64,000 bases of DNA from contig NJBH01000008.1 of assembly GCA_005223125.1 (NCBI GenBank), positions 1 through 64,000 on the forward strand, written 5' to 3'. The position numbers and the translations under genes are program-made. How positions within the stretch are numbered: position 1 is the stretch's first letter; each line of letters opens with the position of its first letter. Below the pieces are notes generated by a model. The model ran no database searches. It was not told the DNA's origin and was given only the letters and a program-made list of their open reading frames with translations. The stretch is from Promethearchaeota archaeon Loki_b32 (lineage in GTDB: Archaea > Asgardarchaeota > Lokiarchaeia > Sigyniarchaeales > SOKP01). Below are positions 11,570-52,196 of this stretch, one piece after another.

Positions 11570-12574
11570 ATGTCAAGAGAGATAAAAGGTATCATAGTAA
11601 GTCGTTTAATCGTTTTGGTATCAATAATTCTAGTTCCAATCGCTATTTTTGTGATATATAACTTAGTTGATTTTAATCTATGGTATTCAAATGATCTAGT
11701 ACTTAAATTAGTGGTAATTAAACTTTTATGTCCTTTTATATTTAGTGTTTCATGGTTATTTTTTTTACTATTATTTATTACTCGTTTTGCTAATACTCTC
11801 GATGATTTTGATAGAACGATTAGTGTTGTTCCTTCAAGATTGAAATTCTTCTATGGGATAAATGCTATTTACATATTGTTGATTTTCATTCTTCCTATAA
11901 TTACCCCAATAATTTCTATTCTAATTTTTGCTTCAATGGCATGGAGATTAACCACTTTTAGAAAAAAAAGATGGGAGGAAGATACAAAAGTCTCAAAAAC
12001 TACATGGATTATGATGGGAATTGCAGCAATTATTCCGATTTTCTGTTCAGCTAGTGTTTTACCAGAATTTTTCGTGTTAGCAGATTTCTTATGGAACGAT
12101 CTATGGCTTCCGTTGCTTCCATATTTATTTAGTATCTCATATTCGTTATTTACTGCATTAGCTATTGGATCTTTTATATTATTATTATTGAATTCTGGGA
12201 TTAGTGAATATGAACAATTTTGGGTTGATTCTTCAAAAGAGGAGAGATTCTGGAATATTAAAATTCTTGAAATACTACTCTTTGGATTTTTTTTATTTTT
12301 AGATATCGGACAATATAGTGTGATTGATTTATTCTATATAATAGGATTTATTTTAATAATAATCACATCAATTGTTAATTTCTTTAAGGGAAAATCAAAA
12401 ATAAAAAGTTTTAAGAGTCATTTAATTGGTTATCTAATCGCAGCTGTATTTATAGGGTCAAATGTCCTTTTTTCCACTGGTGAACTTTCTGAGTTCTTAA
12501 GAGTCTGGAGTTTATTAATTTCAGCAATATTATACATTATCGTGTTTTTTTATACTTTCTTCCAAGCAGAATAA
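11570..12574 (+). CDS. Polytopic membrane protein, unknown function
   Basis: 334 aa, about 9 hydrophobic segments. Confidence 0.8.
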   Translation: MSREIKGIIVSRLIVLVSIILVPIAIFVIYNLVDFNLWYSNDLVLKLVVIKLLCPFIFSVSWLFFLLLFITRFANTLDDFDRTISVVPSRLKFFYGINAIYILLIFILPIITPIISILIFASMAWRLTTFRKKRWEEDTKVSKTTWIMMGIAAIIPIFCSASVLPEFFVLADFLWNDLWLPLLPYLFSISYSLFTALAIGSFILLLLNSGISEYEQFWVDSSKEERFWNIKILEILLFGFFLFLDIGQYSVIDLFYIIGFILIIITSIVNFFKGKSKIKSFKSHLIGYLIAAVFIGSNVLFSTGELSEFLRVWSLLISAILYIIVFFYTFFQAE

Positions 12575-44294: not shown

Positions 44295-44855
44295 TTAATC
44301 TAATACGAATTTAACTCCACTTTTTTTTAATATATGCAAAACCAACTTTTTAAATGCCATTTCAACATTTTCTCCATATTTAGCACTTGTTTCAATAAAC
44401 TCAGTTGCGTTAATCTTTTGAGATAATAATTTCCCTTCTTCGGATGATACTTTGATTGAATCTTTTAAATCTAGTTTGTTACCAATCAAAATATAGACTC
44501 CATCGGGTTTACCAAATTTTATAAAATCCTCAAGCCATTTTGATGTTATATTCTCAAATGTTGAATAACGCGTTTTATCGTAAATAAATAATGCACCTGA
44601 GCAACCCTGAAAAAACATCTTGCGTGTTAACTCATATTTAGCTTGACCGGCGATATCCCACAAAAGTAGACGAATATCAGAATTTATCTCTTCCAATTTT
44701 ATATCCTTTGTGACAATATTAACTCCAAGTGTTGGTTGGTAATTCTCATTAAATGAATCAGTGATATATTTATCAATTAAGGAGGTTTTCCCTACTGCGG
44801 GATCTCCTAATAATGCTAACTTTAATGCCCATTGTCTCTTCTTATCATCTCCCAT
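44295..44855 (-). CDS. Rab/Ras-like small GTPase
   Basis: GDPAVGKT, PTLGV, WDIAGQ, NKLD, ETSAK. Confidence 0.95.
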   Translation of the reverse strand: MGDDKKRQWALKLALLGDPAVGKTSLIDKYITDSFNENYQPTLGVNIVTKDIKLEEINSDIRLLLWDIAGQAKYELTRKMFFQGCSGALFIYDKTRYSTFENITSKWLEDFIKFGKPDGVYILIGNKLDLKDSIKVSSEEGKLLSQKINATEFIETSAKYGENVEMAFKKLVLHILKKSGVKFVLD

Positions 44856-44872
44856 CTATGATCAACCCATTC

Positions 44873-45301
44873 TTATATGTTTAAAAGTGATAAATTAAAT
44901 TGAGGATCGTTAGCACGATATAATTTTTGATCAATCTCATAAATGCTTACTTCTCCAGTTACAGAGACTATAGTTGGTTTGCTTAAATGTCCTCCAATCA
45001 GGCTATAATCACCTCTTCCTAAGGAAACATGCAAGTGAATTATTGGTTCTCCATCTTTATAAGCAATATTCCCTATACATGAAATCAATTCTACGTTTTC
45101 ATTAAACGTTTTCATTTTGTATTTGTTAGAATCAATCATATAAAAACCAATTGTAAATGTCTTTAGTGCCCCAATACATTTGATAAATCCAGACTTAATG
45201 TTATATTTTTTTATCATTTCGATGATAGAATCTACTAAATCCTCATTAGGTTCAACTTTTCCAACAATAACTCGTGAAATTTTAGTTTCAAGACTTTTCA
45301 A
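44873..45301 (-). CDS. PPC/DUF296 domain protein
   Basis: IGAL, ELISCIGNI, HLH, GGHL, TGEV. Confidence 0.9.
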   Translation of the reverse strand: MKSLETKISRVIVGKVEPNEDLVDSIIEMIKKYNIKSGFIKCIGALKTFTIGFYMIDSNKYKMKTFNENVELISCIGNIAYKDGEPIIHLHVSLGRGDYSLIGGHLSKPTIVSVTGEVSIYEIDQKLYRANDPQFNLSLLNI

Positions 45302-45338
45302 TTAATCACCATACTTACTCCTATTAACTTAAGTAATA

Positions 45339-45890
45339 TTATAATATAATCTCTGATTTCCTTAATACACTATATACTAATTTTTTAAACGCATCTTCCA
45401 CATTTTCTCCGTATTTTGCGCTCGTCTCAAGAAAATCGCTCGCATTTATTCTCTCAGCAAATTCTCGTCCTTTCTCAGTCGATACAACTCTTGATTCATT
45501 TAAATCAATTTTATTTCCAATCAAAATACAAGAAAGTTCTTCTTCTGAATACTCTTTTAAATCTTTTAACCATTTAGATTCAATATTGGTAAATGTGTCA
45601 TCTCTGGTCGTATCATATACAAGTAGGGCCCCTACAACTCCTTGAAAGAACATTTTTCTGGAAAGATCATATTTTTCTTGACCCGCAATATCCCAAAGAA
45701 CCAACCGAATTTGAGCATTTATTTCTTCAATCTCTAATTCTTTAACAACAATGTTTACACCTAAAGTAGGCTTGTAATCCTCCTTAAAACGGTGGTGGGT
45801 ATATATGTCAACAAGAGAAGTTTTTCCGACAGCTGCGTCGCCTAATAAAACAAGCTTAAAAACGATAAATTTTTCTTTTTCCCCAGACAT
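45339..45890 (-). CDS. Rab/Ras-like small GTPase
   Basis: GDAAVGKT, PTLGV, WDIAGQ, NKID, ETSAK. Confidence 0.95.
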   Translation of the reverse strand: MSGEKEKFIVFKLVLLGDAAVGKTSLVDIYTHHRFKEDYKPTLGVNIVVKELEIEEINAQIRLVLWDIAGQEKYDLSRKMFFQGVVGALLVYDTTRDDTFTNIESKWLKDLKEYSEEELSCILIGNKIDLNESRVVSTEKGREFAERINASDFLETSAKYGENVEDAFKKLVYSVLRKSEIIL

Positions 45891-46084: not shown

Positions 46085-47044
46085 ATGCCAGAGAAAGTTA
46101 TAATATCAGGAGTAGAATTATTATTATCTGAACCAGCTCAAGTAGATATGAAATGGGTTGGAAATGATGATTTAATTAATCAATTAAAAGCTTCATGGAT
46201 GCTTGTTGATAAGGATGATCTTCCCCTAAATCCTCGTATTCTAGGAAAGCCTGGAGTTGGCAAAACAACACTTGCTTATGCTACTGGAAGACGATTAGAA
46301 AAAGACGTATACATCTTTCAGTGCACTATGGATACTCGCCCAGAAGATCTTCTTATTAGTCCTGTGATTGCCTCAAACAATAAAATAGCCTATGTTGCGA
46401 GCTCTTTGGTGTCAGCCATGATAAAAGGAGGAGTATGTCTATTAGATGAGGGAAATAGAATGAGTGAAAAAAGTTGGGCTTCTTTAGCACCATTAATGGA
46501 TAAAAGGCGTTATGTTGAGAGTATTATTACGGGTATTAGGATATACGCTCATCCTGAATTTCGGTTATGTGTAACAATGAATGCAGATAGTAGTACATAT
46601 GAAATTCCAGAATATATACAATCTCGTTTACAACCTAAAATTTATATAGACTTTCCAAATAAAGTTGATGAATTAAAGATTTTAAACTACAATTTACCAT
46701 TTGCTTCAGATGAAATATTAGAATATTGTGTAGATTTCCTCCAGAATGCTCATATTTATGACGAACCTTATACTGTGAGAGATGGGATTAATATTTTAAG
46801 ATATTATACAAAATCAAGGTTGATGAAGAAAGAAGATCAAGATAAAATAGAAAAGAAAACGTTTGAGAATATGGTTATTCAAGTATTAGAAGAAGCTGCT
46901 TTAAAATATTTACCTGGAAATTACGAAGAGTTTTTGAAAAAACAGAATGATTCAATCTCTTTGAAAATATTTAAAGATTTTGATGAAGTGAATGATTATT
47001 ATGATAAATTTGTGAAAAAAGATGAACAAGACTCAAATGGATGA
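46085..47044 (+). CDS. MoxR-like AAA+ ATPase
   Basis: GKPGVGKT, LLDEGNR, HPEFRL, SRL. Confidence 0.9.
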   Translation: MPEKVIISGVELLLSEPAQVDMKWVGNDDLINQLKASWMLVDKDDLPLNPRILGKPGVGKTTLAYATGRRLEKDVYIFQCTMDTRPEDLLISPVIASNNKIAYVASSLVSAMIKGGVCLLDEGNRMSEKSWASLAPLMDKRRYVESIITGIRIYAHPEFRLCVTMNADSSTYEIPEYIQSRLQPKIYIDFPNKVDELKILNYNLPFASDEILEYCVDFLQNAHIYDEPYTVRDGINILRYYTKSRLMKKEDQDKIEKKTFENMVIQVLEEAALKYLPGNYEEFLKKQNDSISLKIFKDFDEVNDYYDKFVKKDEQDSNG

Positions 47045-49028
47045 TAATCCCTTTATAAAATTTGAAAATTTATATGTTATTCCTACTTTTCATTCGCGTA
47101 TAGAATTTGCAAAATTGGTTCGTACAGCTTTATTTAAAGTTTTTCCTGATGTAATTGCTGTAGAATTACCAAATAACATACAAGATGAAGTTATAGAAGC
47201 TATTGGGAGATTACCTTTTTTATCTTTAATTGGATATGCTGATACATTAAATCCAAAAAAGTTAAATTTTATACCTGTAGATCCAGGTGATTCTATAATG
47301 GAAAGTATAAGAATTGGGCTTGAGTACGATATTCCAATCGAATTTATTGATCTATCTGTTTCTGAATATTTGCCTCCAAGCTTCAAACTTCCAGATGATT
47401 ATGCTATTAATCAAATTGGGCTTCATAAGTTTTATAAACAGATTTCAAAATACTTTAAAAACGAGTTTAAAGATAATAAAGCTAAACTTAAGGATAAGGT
47501 TAATTTGGAGGATTTTCTTAAAAATCAAGAAAATGTAGATAATAAATATAATTTCATTGAAAAAGATATTCTTAGAGAGAAATACATGGCAGCTCACCTA
47601 TTAAAATTAATGTCATTATATCATAGAGTTTTACTAATTATCGGCATGGCTCATTGGGAAAACGTGAAATATTATATAGAAAATCCAGAAAAAATTGAAG
47701 AAGTAGAATTGGAGTTAATTCCTCATAAATATGTAAAAATTTACAACATAAGAGGTTCTGATGCTAGATTTATTTTAAGAGAGTTACCATATCATACATA
47801 TAAATGGTTAAGATTTAGAAATGAGTTTTCAAAAGGAAAATTAGAAAGCATAGAAACTCCAGAAGAGCTTTATGATATTTTAAATTCATACAACAAGATT
47901 GAACATATTAGAAAGATCTTAATCAATGCCAAATACGATTATGAAGAGGAATTTAAAGAATTTGTAGATCTCCATAAATTAAAAACTTTATTTCAATATT
48001 CAAGAAACCTCTCATTATCAGACCGGAGATTATTGCCAAACTTATATCAACTATTAATTGCCTCAAAAAATATTGTTGATGATGATTATGCTTGGAAAGT
48101 TATGGAAAAAGCTACCAAATATCCCTATGATGATGAGAGCGATAATTATGAAACGTTGAAAATGGGCTTAGAAGGCGGTTATGATCCAAGTGGTCGCTAT
48201 ATAAAACTACGTAGACATCATCCTTATACCTATGGAAAAGAAAAAGAGGTTCCATTAAAAGAGAAGCCTGAAGAAAAATACCCTGGAGAGTGGAGAGATA
48301 AATGGGAAGAAGGTAAAGATTATACAGTTTCCTGGCCTCCTGAAGATATTCTAGAAGAAGACTACTTTGCCTTTATAAGAAAAAAAACTATTAAGAATTT
48401 AAAAAACCAGAGAATTAAAATAGAGGAATTCAAGTCCAGCTTAATGGATGGGATCGCGATTAAAGAAACTATTAGGAATTGGGCGTTCAAGAAAAAGATT
48501 TACGTACAAAATATTCAACAAATTCAAGGTAAAATCGATACTATTGTTGTAATATTTGATACCGATGAGGGAGAAGTTGAAAAGTATCCTTATAAATTAA
48601 CTTGGTGGGCAGAACATGACAGAGAAAGTGATATGGCTTTCTATTCAACCAATCCTGGCGATTATATTATTGGACCAGGTATTACACACGTAGAAGTTGG
48701 GGGATTACTATCTATCTTTCCAGCATTATTCTTACGATCTATTTTCGATCCCTATATGGAATACGAATTTAAAGATACTAATAATAAGGCGGAGCGTCTT
48801 CTCAAGGCAGCCATTATTTATTCAAAAGAACGATATATAGCATATGTAGCATCAAAACCCCCTCGTAAGTATTTTTATTCACGGGCGGCTATAAAGAATC
48901 GCGAATTAATATATATTCCAATAGATAATTTTAGTAAAGAATCTCTGAAAACAATTAAACATATTCATATCCTAGCAGGTAGGGATAAAAGAAAAATTGC
49001 TCATAACTATATCTTCTTAAATGAATAG
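47037..49028 (+). CDS. Large MoxR-associated protein (TraB/ChaN-like N-terminal region)
   Basis: 'PTFH...PDVIAVELP', 'REKYMA', 'IIGMAHW'; overlaps the AAA gene stop. Confidence 0.7.
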   Translation: MDDNPFIKFENLYVIPTFHSRIEFAKLVRTALFKVFPDVIAVELPNNIQDEVIEAIGRLPFLSLIGYADTLNPKKLNFIPVDPGDSIMESIRIGLEYDIPIEFIDLSVSEYLPPSFKLPDDYAINQIGLHKFYKQISKYFKNEFKDNKAKLKDKVNLEDFLKNQENVDNKYNFIEKDILREKYMAAHLLKLMSLYHRVLLIIGMAHWENVKYYIENPEKIEEVELELIPHKYVKIYNIRGSDARFILRELPYHTYKWLRFRNEFSKGKLESIETPEELYDILNSYNKIEHIRKILINAKYDYEEEFKEFVDLHKLKTLFQYSRNLSLSDRRLLPNLYQLLIASKNIVDDDYAWKVMEKATKYPYDDESDNYETLKMGLEGGYDPSGRYIKLRRHHPYTYGKEKEVPLKEKPEEKYPGEWRDKWEEGKDYTVSWPPEDILEEDYFAFIRKKTIKNLKNQRIKIEEFKSSLMDGIAIKETIRNWAFKKKIYVQNIQQIQGKIDTIVVIFDTDEGEVEKYPYKLTWWAEHDRESDMAFYSTNPGDYIIGPGITHVEVGGLLSIFPALFLRSIFDPYMEYEFKDTNNKAERLLKAAIIYSKERYIAYVASKPPRKYFYSRAAIKNRELIYIPIDNFSKESLKTIKHIHILAGRDKRKIAHNYIFLNE

Positions 49029-49082
49029 CAAATGAAAATACCGTTAAATTTTTAAAATCTTTTTACTATAATTTAAATATAA

Positions 49083-49236
49083 CGTGGATGTGGATGCTAT
49101 GAATAAAAATACTAAATTCTTAGGTTTTACACAAAATATGATTAAGATCATATCCACGATTATTATTATCTAAATTCATTTATTTGTGAAGTGAATTCTC
49201 GTAGCTTTTACTCCACATCCTACTTCATGAATAAAT
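49083..49236 (+). promoter_or_regulatory. Putative attenuator / structured leader of ileS
   Basis: Alternative helices 49083-92/49149-58, 49086-94/49212-20, 49096-102/49199-205, 49173-81/49189-97, 49178-92/49222-36. Confidence 0.65.
49099..49173 (+). CDS. Ile-rich leader peptide MNKNTKFLGFTQNMIKIISTIIII
   Basis: ATG...TAA, 24 codons; 7 of the last 10 are Ile (ATT, ATC, ATA); ends 161 nt before ileS. Confidence 0.75.
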   Translation: MNKNTKFLGFTQNMIKIISTIIII

Positions 49237-49334
49237 TAACTGAAATTGCGATATAAACTAATTGTGTTAAATAATTTTATTTTTAACATTTTTAAGTTAA
49301 ATAATTTAATGAACATAAAAAAATCTCAAGTAAG

Positions 49335-52196
49335 GTGTTAAATATTTCATATATTGAAAAAGAAAAAGAACTTATACAATTTTGGAAATATAATAATATA
49401 TTTGAAAAAAGTGTAGAGCAAAGACCAAAGAATAATCCATATATATTTTATGATGGACCACCTTTTGCAACGGGATTGCCCCATTACGGTCATATATTAA
49501 GTTTTGTAACAAAGGATGTATTTCCGAGATATTGGACAATGAAAAATCACCGTTGTGAGAGAAGATGGGGTTGGGATTGTCATGGTTTGCCAATCGAAAG
49601 TATCTGTGAAAGAGAACTAAATTTAAAGCAGAAAAATGAAATATACGAAATGGGTATTGCTGATTTCAATGAATTTTGTCGATCAAAAGTGCTTTGGTAT
49701 ACAACTGAATGGAAAAAAACTGTTGAACGAATGGGTAAGTGGATAGAGTTTGATAATTCTTATAAAACCATGGATAATACATATATGGAAACTGTGTGGT
49801 ATATTTTTAAGAAAATATACACCAAGGGGTTCGTGTATAGGGGAAAAAAAATACTGTTCTATTGTCCACGATGTGAAACTCCACTTTCTAATTTCGAGAT
49901 TTCGATGGATAATAGCTATAAAGATATTAGTGAACATTCTATAACAGCAAAATTCAAATTGATAGAAGAGCCAATGACATTTTTTCTTGCTTGGACCACA
50001 ACGCCTTGGACGTTAATTGGAAATGTAGCTTTAGCTGTAGATAGCGAGCGAGATTATGTTAAAATAAAATTTGATGATGAATATTTAATATTGATAAAAA
50101 ATCAATTAGATACAATCAAAAAAGACTATGAAATTGTTGATGAATTTAAAGGAAATGACCTAATTAATAAAGAATATGAACCATTATATCACATTTCTCC
50201 TGATACCACTAAAAAAGGGCACTTTGTTATTGATGGGGGTGATGAGGTATTATCTGATGAAGGAACAGGAATAATACACATAGCAATTTATGGGGAATTT
50301 GATTATGAAATGATAAAGAAACATGATTTAACTATAATTCAACATATTGATGAACATGGCAATCTGGCTCAGGGTCCGAGAGATTGGATTGGATTGTGGT
50401 TTAAAGATGTAAATGAAAAAGTCTTAGAGGATTTGCACCAACGGAACCTTTTATTTAGTTCAGAAGATTACACTCATTCTTATCCATTCTGTTATAGATG
50501 TGATACTCCCTTAATTTATAATGCTCTTGATGCTTGGTTTATAGATATTCAACGAATAAAACCAATGCTTCTGGAAACTAATGAAAGAATCAACTGGTAT
50601 CCTAAAGAGATTTCAAGAAGATATGAAAGTATAGTTAATACCGCTCCTGATTGGTGTATTTCAAGAAATAGATTTTGGGCTACTGCTATGCCTATTTGGG
50701 AATGTGAAGAATGTAAAAAAATTAAAGTCATTGGATCTATTAAAGAATTACAGGAAAATGCGGTTGAAGAGGTTCCTGATGATTTAGATCTTCATAGACA
50801 TATTGTTGATAAGATATATCTTAAATGTTCTAATTGCAGCAAAGTAATGAAGCGTGTACCTGAAGTATTTGACTGCTGGTTGGAATCAGGATCAATGCCT
50901 TATGCGGCAAAACATTACCCATTTGAAAATGTGGAATGGTTTAAGCATAATTTTCCAAGTGATTTTGTGTCTGAGTATGTCCCACAAGTTAGGGCGTGGT
51001 TTTACTACATGCATGCAATAGCCGTCCTGCTATTTAATGAAATCCCATTTAAAAATGTCGTTGTAAATGGCAATATACTCGCTGAAGATGGAACTAAGAT
51101 GTCAAAGTCTAAAAGAAATTTCCCCGATCCAAACCTAATGATTGAGAAATATGGAGCTGATGCTTTAAGAATATATCTTTTATCATCCCAATTGATGAGG
51201 GCACAAGATTTAAATTTTAAAGAGGAAATTGTAAAACAAGTTTACCGACGATTCAATTTATTGCTAATTAATGTTCTAAAATTCTATTCATTGAATGATA
51301 TTGATAACGTTATTATGGATATAACGCGTTCAGATAATATTTTAGATAAATGGATTGTCAGTTTATTGAATAGCCTTATACAGGACATTACGCAACTTAT
51401 GGATGATTATGACACAGCAGAAGTAAGTAGATTATTCTTCAACTTCATCGAGGATCTCTCCACATGGTATATTAAAAACAGCAGGAATCGATTTAAAAGT
51501 GAGAATATAAATGAAAAATTATCAGCGATGAACACATTGTCCTATATACTTTATAATTTATCAAAACTCTTAGCTCCTTTAACTCCATTTATATCAGAAA
51601 TAATATACCAGAAATTGATAGAGAAAGGGATTGCAAATTTTAAATCCGTCCATTTAGAGTTTTGGCCCGAGTTTGATGAGAAGTTGATTGATAGCGAAGT
51701 TCTAAAAAATATGGAACTAACAAGAGAAGTAGTAAAAAGATCCTTAGAATTAAGAGAGAATTCTAAAATTCCAGTTAGGCAGGTTCTAAATAAGGTTACA
51801 ATAAAAGGAGTAAATCTTGAAAAGAAATATTTAGATGTTATAGCAGAAGCTATAAATGTGAGAAATGTAAATATTGAAAAGGGAGAAGAGGTTGAATTTC
51901 TAGTAGAATTAGACACAATTATTACGCCAGAGTTGAAGTTAGAAGGAATTGCTAGAAACTTAATAAGACATCTGAATAATTATCGAAAAAAACTGAATCT
52001 ATCAACGAAAAATCGAATTAATTTATATTTAAAAACAAATGATAAAGATATTTCAGAAGCCCTTGAAAAACATAAGGAGAAAATAAAGAAGATGATACAA
52101 GCTGAAACAATCATTCAAAATATGGAAGGGAAGGAACATATAAAGAAGTTCAAAATTGAAAATAAAGTCGTTGAGGCATATATTGAGGTAAAATAA
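49335..52196 (+). CDS. ileS: Isoleucyl-tRNA synthetase (archaeal/eukaryote-like IleRS2 type)
   Basis: DGPPFATGLPHYGH, GWDCHGLP, AWTTTPWT, WCISRNRFW, KMSKS. Confidence 0.96.
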   Translation: MLNISYIEKEKELIQFWKYNNIFEKSVEQRPKNNPYIFYDGPPFATGLPHYGHILSFVTKDVFPRYWTMKNHRCERRWGWDCHGLPIESICERELNLKQKNEIYEMGIADFNEFCRSKVLWYTTEWKKTVERMGKWIEFDNSYKTMDNTYMETVWYIFKKIYTKGFVYRGKKILFYCPRCETPLSNFEISMDNSYKDISEHSITAKFKLIEEPMTFFLAWTTTPWTLIGNVALAVDSERDYVKIKFDDEYLILIKNQLDTIKKDYEIVDEFKGNDLINKEYEPLYHISPDTTKKGHFVIDGGDEVLSDEGTGIIHIAIYGEFDYEMIKKHDLTIIQHIDEHGNLAQGPRDWIGLWFKDVNEKVLEDLHQRNLLFSSEDYTHSYPFCYRCDTPLIYNALDAWFIDIQRIKPMLLETNERINWYPKEISRRYESIVNTAPDWCISRNRFWATAMPIWECEECKKIKVIGSIKELQENAVEEVPDDLDLHRHIVDKIYLKCSNCSKVMKRVPEVFDCWLESGSMPYAAKHYPFENVEWFKHNFPSDFVSEYVPQVRAWFYYMHAIAVLLFNEIPFKNVVVNGNILAEDGTKMSKSKRNFPDPNLMIEKYGADALRIYLLSSQLMRAQDLNFKEEIVKQVYRRFNLLLINVLKFYSLNDIDNVIMDITRSDNILDKWIVSLLNSLIQDITQLMDDYDTAEVSRLFFNFIEDLSTWYIKNSRNRFKSENINEKLSAMNTLSYILYNLSKLLAPLTPFISEIIYQKLIEKGIANFKSVHLEFWPEFDEKLIDSEVLKNMELTREVVKRSLELRENSKIPVRQVLNKVTIKGVNLEKKYLDVIAEAINVRNVNIEKGEEVEFLVELDTIITPELKLEGIARNLIRHLNNYRKKLNLSTKNRINLYLKTNDKDISEALEKHKEKIKKMIQAETIIQNMEGKEHIKKFKIENKVVEAYIEVK

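Follow-up and report, generated by a model that had tools for sequence, protein, structure and literature searches.

The window analysed here, a 64,000-nt stretch of the genome of Promethearchaeota archaeon Loki_b32, carries a 24-codon open reading frame that ends 170 nt before the synthetase gene ileS, with cysS behind ileS (Table 1). Seven of the last ten codons of this leader encode Ile, including all of the final four, and in a survey of the small ORFs of the genome only two, the leader included, had seven Ile in their last ten codons. The start codon of ileS is probably the ATT at 49344, 6 nt past its Shine-Dalgarno (SD) site. Further upstream, an AAA ATPase gene overlaps that of a 668-aa protein with a weak TraB-family match only (46085-49028), and this pair precedes the leader in many orthologs, not in all. 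On the minus strand, at 44295-45890, a small PPC-domain-like gene lies between two Rab-like small GTPase genes, all assigned by motif.

Table 1. Features of the leader region and of related leaders. Positions without prefix refer to the window.
Feature	Position	Strand	Remarks
Likely promoter, BRE-like ACCG/CCGAAA then T-rich TATA-like box	49040-49056	+	38-leader alignment
Second TATA-like stretch	49070-49079	+	T49078 invariant, A49079 at least 90%
Segment A, leader SD and switching strand, partner of B or D	49083-49094	+	49086-93 invariant in 38/38
Segment A', contains leader ATG	49096-49102	+	Partner of X in the A:D state; a weaker and variable pairing
Leader ORF, 24 codons	49099-49173	+	Open in 38/38 orthologs
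Segment B, in the Ile codons, protector helix with A	49148-49158	+	96% of alignment cells paired; 2 pairs changed on both sides
Hairpin E, right after the stop	49173-49197	+	Formed in the A:D state; competes with C:D'
Segment C, U-rich 5' arm of hairpin H (C:D')	49178-49193	+	92% of cells paired; 7/14 pairs changed on both sides
Segment X, loop of H, partner of A'	49199-49205	+	Pairing inspected in 38 orthologs
Segment D, loop of H into stem top, partner of A	49212-49223	+	98% of cells paired; 6/11 pairs never vary
Segment D', 3' arm of hairpin H	49221-49236	+	Alignment folding and pair counts
T-tracts, possible termination site	49275-49293	+	Indistinguishable from background
ileS	49334-52196	+	TIGR00392 above cut-off; region begins with GGTG SD, 49334-37
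Second-family Ile leaders	L167:3855-3941 (Ca. L. ossiferum); L124:1077-1166; L125:1171-1260	minus (L167)	Wiring before native ileS
Ca. L. ossiferum biosynthetic leaders	L168:1213-1323; L173:1250-1363; L173:3431-3526		Each with a strong hairpin after it

The leader was compared among orthologs, defined as 38 distinct leaders from two Lokiarchaeia genera that precede the same, DPANN-like type of ileS. All the leaders recovered before this ileS type in Lokiarchaeia retain the element. The leader frame is open in every one (20-25 codons), the other two frames contain stops in every one, and the median number of Ile in the last ten codons is 6.5. In this genome, segment A complements the anti-SD read from the genome's own 16S end, at a spacing that equals the genome-wide peak, and the duplex of -7.4 kcal/mol ranks in about the top 10% of genes. 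The hallmarks of a leader-peptide attenuator, namely a short conserved ORF that has its own ribosome-binding site and repeated cognate codons, are thus all found before ileS. The Ser codon within segment B is TCC in 36 of the 38 leaders, and TCC makes up 6.8% of the Ser codons of the genome, a bias that points to selection on the RNA. A strict pattern search detected the element in 27 of 53 genomes of the same genus and in 7 of 42 of the second genus; candidate matches outside these two genera resembled unrelated coding sequence and were discarded.

An earlier note on this DNA had described five pairings around the leader, and all are exact on the plus strand in coordinates, length and number of G-U pairs. 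Two can be extended, the 10-bp A:B helix to 11 bp (49093:49148) and the 15-bp C:D' stem to 16 bp (49193:49221). The folding comparison proposed with them also turned out in their favour, given that 49079-49240 folds at -33.9 kcal/mol (z -4.34) and none of 200 shuffled sequences folds as well; the minus strand of the region gives z -2.89. Three helices of about -14 kcal/mol are present here, two of them sharing one strand. Three helices of -9 kcal/mol or better occurred in 0 of 300 shuffles, and a competing strong pair in 1 of 300. The idea that the helices exclude each other holds for segment A, which is shared by B and D, and for hairpin E against C:D', but the 15-bp stem has no bases in common with the 9-bp core of A:D. 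The two cross, and become exclusive only through the extension 49084-85:49222-23 and through pairing within the loop. The weakest helices in the orthologs are 49096-102:49199-205 (77% of cells paired) and the hairpin 49173-97 (87%). An Rfam search gave only chance-level matches (E 2-4) to unrelated families, and no match to the T-box.

Unconstrained folding of the alignment returns A:B plus C:D'. The covariation asked for in the earlier note is found in both helices, with 9 of 24 pairs changed on both sides, a number that none of 500 shuffles reaches. In this state 93.5% of the cells are paired, against 38-48% in slid controls; both the shuffles and the slid controls are uncorrected for relatedness. 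The alternative state is 89% paired across the alignment; its A:D helix is 98% paired and its core almost invariant, so that covariation says nothing about this core within the 38-leader family. In the second genus, positions 49084-85, 49156, 49191-92 and 49222-23 change jointly, and these changes keep A:B, the A:D extension and C:D' paired, except for one A:B pair; in one clade both members of the extension pairs 49084:49223 and 49085:49222 have changed. This is probably one evolutionary event, and as such it supports, without proving, a competition of A and C for one set of bases. As the orthologs come from two genera, several of the compensatory changes each reflect one inherited event. An AAUAAA-like signal in D' was also considered and is not conserved in the alignment.

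Folding models suggest how a ribosome could move the RNA between the two states. With no ribosome, A:B dominates in transcripts ending at the leader stop in 35 of the 38 leaders, and when A:B is fixed, hairpin C:D' forms in 36, leaving D in the loop. When the footprint of a ribosome masks the Ile codons, A:D is obtained in 37. The energy gap between the states has a median of 2.2 kcal/mol. The free full-length RNA at equilibrium favours A:D in 25 leaders, and a ribosome placed at the stop favours it in 31, from which it follows that the OFF state must be a kinetic one that needs fast ribosome release. Alternative helices, one of them over the regulatory codons, that are switched by the position of the ribosome are thus supported computationally, by covariation and by masked folding. 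The polarity is our inference: A:D is taken as ON, and A:B with C:D' as OFF, because the synthetase should rise when charged tRNA is short.

Both TATA-like boxes of the earlier note are present. Archaeal promoters keep a characteristic distance to the transcription start, and applied to the likely promoter, in which four T columns are invariant and the C and A columns nearly so among the 38 leaders, this spacing predicts a start near 49077-49079. The second TATA-like stretch is more likely to be the AT-rich melting region and start site than a TATA box; a promoter model built from upstream regions and tRNA genes of the genome itself had too high an AT content to separate the two. The covariation of segment A with B, and its complementarity to the near-invariant D, make a start at 49099, which would leave A out, unlikely.

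The ileS gene behind the leader appears to have a history of its own. A tree built from the first 300 residues and rooted at its midpoint groups the leader-bearing type in a single, fully supported clade that lies among DPANN sequences and is remote from the native enzyme of Lokiarchaeia. Horizontal acquisition of a DPANN-like type would account for this position. Several relatives have both types of ileS, and the Ile leader precedes only the DPANN-like one; the genus of the present genome also has a native ileS of 1048 aa, and no Ile leader was seen upstream of it. A native copy was not found in the present genome, which is 95.5% complete.

A second family of Ile leaders was found before native ileS in three genomes, those of the cultured Ca. 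Lokiarchaeum ossiferum and of two members of a related genus. Its sequence is different and its A:B/A:D wiring is the same. Segment A is found where the ORF starts, B within its Ile codons, and D 38-39 nt past the stop; A:B folds first and A:D upon masking, with D in or across the hairpin loop in the A:B state. Among the three genomes A and D differ on both sides. The Ile leader of Ca. L. ossiferum, at 5,439,654-5,439,740 on the minus strand of its genome, has no SD and may be leaderless. The second-family leader is absent from the 4.32-Mb genome of a sister genus of Ca. L. ossiferum, which we take to be P. syntrophicum.

Leaders for other amino acids occur as well. In the present genome, a Leu-rich leader of 28 codons, behind which lies a hairpin whose loop is U-rich, precedes leuS (on contig C37), and a 16-codon leader with four Trp codons precedes trpB2 (C61:57501). 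Inspection of this genome by eye revealed no cognate leader for a valS-like gene, a second leuS and 11 other synthetase genes. In Ca. L. ossiferum, leaders rich in Leu, in Ile and in mixed branched-chain residues are found upstream of two HMGL-family genes and of the gene that comes next. The cognate codons of two of these can pair with an SD-like sequence, hinting at a translational output there.

As the earlier note had remarked, no GC-rich hairpin with an adjacent U-run is present. Hairpin H is followed by A-rich sequence with no adjoining U-run, and no conserved terminator feature was seen after it in the 38 orthologs. The note had further suggested that the output is archaeal rather than intrinsic, possibly by exposure of the T-tracts to the terminator aCPSF1. 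The lack of a bacterial intrinsic terminator is confirmed, and aCPSF1 is encoded in the genome (TIGR03675 above cut-off). A role for the T-tracts themselves was not borne out: they do exist, but an ortholog has 0-4 U4 runs downstream of the switch (mode 2), against a mean of 1.9-2.1 per 100 nt in ordinary intergenic DNA of this genome, and such runs are missing in 3 of the 38 orthologs, the first run lying 8-54 nt past the hairpin elsewhere. The predicted accessibility of the T-tracts is 0.36 versus 0.30 between the states, a slight difference in the direction that the note expected. U-tracts are more open in the A:B state in 12 of 35 cases and less open in 3 of 35, a small effect at a tract density equal to background. 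Exposure of T-tracts to aCPSF1 is thus no more than possible.

Studies of aCPSF1 have shown that it is a genome-wide archaeal terminator, that the U-rich RNA it requires must be no farther than about 36 nt from the growing end (PMC13675443, PMC11616081) and close to the exit channel (PMC11616081), and that a Lokiarchaeota ortholog is functional in Methanococcus (PMC13675443). If a single effector acts here, aCPSF1 would be the most likely one. The spacer between the hairpin and ileS is long (68-112 nt), variable and poorly conserved, which fits transcriptional control. Moreover, no conserved helix over the ileS ribosome site in one state, as expected of a translational attenuator, was seen, and a transcriptional output is most likely because there is no conserved pairing with that site.

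We consider it highly probable, from the conserved wiring and the modelled folds, that a ribosome-read, Ile-sensing switch precedes ileS. The reading as a whole, in which an attenuator senses charged tRNA-Ile and acts on the transcription of ileS, and then probably of cysS behind it, is modestly favoured. Transcription would begin near 49079, and a ribosome would load at segment A, whose SD character is evident from its sequence. When Ile-tRNA is plentiful, the ribosome would finish and depart, A:B would pair and H would then form with D in its loop, giving the OFF state; here the folding is computed and the polarity assumed. When Ile-tRNA is scarce, a ribosome stalled on the Ile codons would cover B, and the free A would capture D as it emerges. 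In the computed folds, A:D then invades the top of H and shuts the leader's own ribosome site, giving the ON state. The OFF fold would stop transcription in the A/U-rich spacer before ileS, via aCPSF1/FttA or by hairpin-aided release where the DNA is U-rich. Dependence of this termination on aCPSF1 is a tentative component of the transcriptional reading.

The same Ile switch could instead act on translation, with H blocking, or A:D permitting, loading or re-initiation at a weak ileS start. The aligned start codon is ATG in 18 orthologs, ATT in 16 and ATA in 3, so that 19 of the 38 begin with ATT or ATA, and D is anti-SD-like, able in this genome to pair at 10 of 11 bases with the ribosome site of ileS. 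Leader folds of leuA/cimA in L. ossiferum pair cognate codons with a downstream purine-rich, SD-like sequence, and these single-sequence folds suggest that related leaders may act on translation. However, D binds the ileS site no better than it does other SD-bearing genes (median percentile 0.48), the accessibility of the ileS SD barely depends on the state (0.33 versus 0.36), and the spacer measures 68-112 nt in the present family and more than 180 nt in the second; we regard a translational output as unlikely. Slightly less likely still is that the switch governs cleavage or decay of the finished mRNA, by a fold that exposes a nuclease site or an unprotected 5' end. Segment A at the predicted 5' end, two states close in energy and interconvertible through A':X, and a terminator that is not visible would all agree with this, but the 5' end is paired in both states and no conserved single-stranded motif other than D was seen.

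It is also conceivable, though rather improbable, that the stalled ribosome itself antiterminates in the manner of tnaC, protecting the U-rich sequence that follows the stop against aCPSF1, while the helices do no more than restrict the leader to a single round of translation or set the pace of the polymerase; since the A:D core and H have no bases in common, they might then form a pseudoknot. The leader SD is closed in both folds, 49175-49188 is pyrimidine- or U-rich across the alignment, and the ribosome has already been proposed to exclude FttA sterically (PMC11616081). Such a scheme leaves unexplained the strong covariation of H and the position of D within the hairpin loop in both families. 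Least probable of all is that there is no switch, and that a leaderless transcript starts at 49099, or a separate small RNA or peptide gene lies here, with an ileS promoter near the T-tract at 49275-85. A TATA-like box does lie about 25 nt upstream of the ATG, and the downstream T-tract is similar to that upstream. Nevertheless, A covaries with B, D stays complementary to A, the Ile codons fit the gene behind them in two ileS lineages that are unrelated, and in the present genome the Leu leader likewise stands before leuS and the Trp leader before trpB2.

Among known systems, hisL, ilvL, thrL and pheM, the last before pheST, are the classical leader-peptide attenuators of enterobacteria. Those of the trpL type likewise combine a short leader, terminal cognate codons and competing helices (PMC8708949). 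The pheST operon is an attenuated synthetase operon (PMC1262725), and the target of its leader, like that of the Loki leader, is a synthetase. The Loki leader, whose host is archaeal, has no hairpin-plus-U-run terminator, the first U4 run being 8-54 nt away or absent. In addition, whereas trpL and pheM follow the order 1:2, 2:3, 3:4 with the stall on segment 1, the stall in the Loki leader would cover the 3' partner B, and the segment freed would be the upstream A, the leader's own ribosome site, and not the next downstream segment. On these two counts, intrinsic terminator and segment order, the ileS leader is outside the classical class. In the Rho-dependent attenuators Salmonella mgtL-mgtA and corL-corA, and E. 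coli tnaC, translation of a leader refolds the RNA and a separate factor terminates (PMC12360218). If aCPSF1 is the effector, the closest working model by analogy would be the factor-dependent mgtL/corL type, with a different signal and a different factor, since archaea use the nuclease aCPSF1/FttA on U-rich RNA.

The actinobacterial LEU element and the terminator-less Cys leaders also combine a cognate-codon leader and an alternative or pseudoknotted fold with the lack of an intrinsic terminator (PMC1262725). The codon run of the LEU element pairs with the SD of the main gene, whereas that of the Loki leader pairs with the leader's own SD. The T-box riboswitches of ileS share the target gene and the signal, uncharged tRNA-Ile, but the Loki leader would sense it through a translated ORF and has no Rfam match to them. 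A Trp minigene may precede trpY in Methanothermobacter. It was stated in 2021 that no transcription attenuation or antitermination mechanism was known in archaea (PMC8448881), and no later report of such attenuation in Asgard or other archaea was found in searches of the open literature. The leader looks like the bacterial amino-acid gauges that are read by a ribosome, and the same open literature yielded no published archaeal counterpart. It might even be an archaeal ribosome-controlled attenuator in which the stalled ribosome frees the leader SD as an antiterminator and the OFF fold leads to the CPSF73-family nuclease aCPSF1, one of a wider amino-acid-sensing system of Lokiarchaeia; this full picture is doubtful.

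A conserved, covarying attenuator would imply that transcription and translation in Asgard archaea are coupled tightly enough for regulation. The leader would also offer a natural substrate for the competition between ribosome and aCPSF1/FttA on nascent RNA, a hypothesis put forward in PMC11616081. As the same architecture occurs in a cultured species, Ca. L. ossiferum, it is testable there.

Several further observations were made around ileS and other synthetase genes. An Ile codon (ATT, 49344-49346) as the start of ileS could be a further layer of control or a mere habit of the lineage; genome-wide, the enrichment of such starts following SD motifs is weak at best (ATA 1.4-fold, ATT 1.0). 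In two Nanoarchaeia (L086:1363 and L106:1367), an Ile-rich ORF of 10-11 codons lies about 135 nt before the same ileS type. These ORFs have no segments A and D and may represent an independent DPANN leader. Several DPANN genomes (L072, L075, L079, L080 and L082) have a tRNA-like gene shortly upstream of ileS, and in Patescibacteria relatives (L093, L094 and L096) T-box-like leaders were recognised by eye before the same ileS type. In the present genome, a GC-richer, structured non-coding stretch before the second leuS (contig C11, about 11650-11870) is, judged by eye, possibly RNase P RNA. Contig C68, whose serS- and lysS-like genes have a bacterial look, is possibly an assembly contaminant. 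On contig C48, ARAGORN called a tRNA with a TTA, stop-reading anticodon, which may be a mis-called selenocysteine or intron-bearing tRNA.
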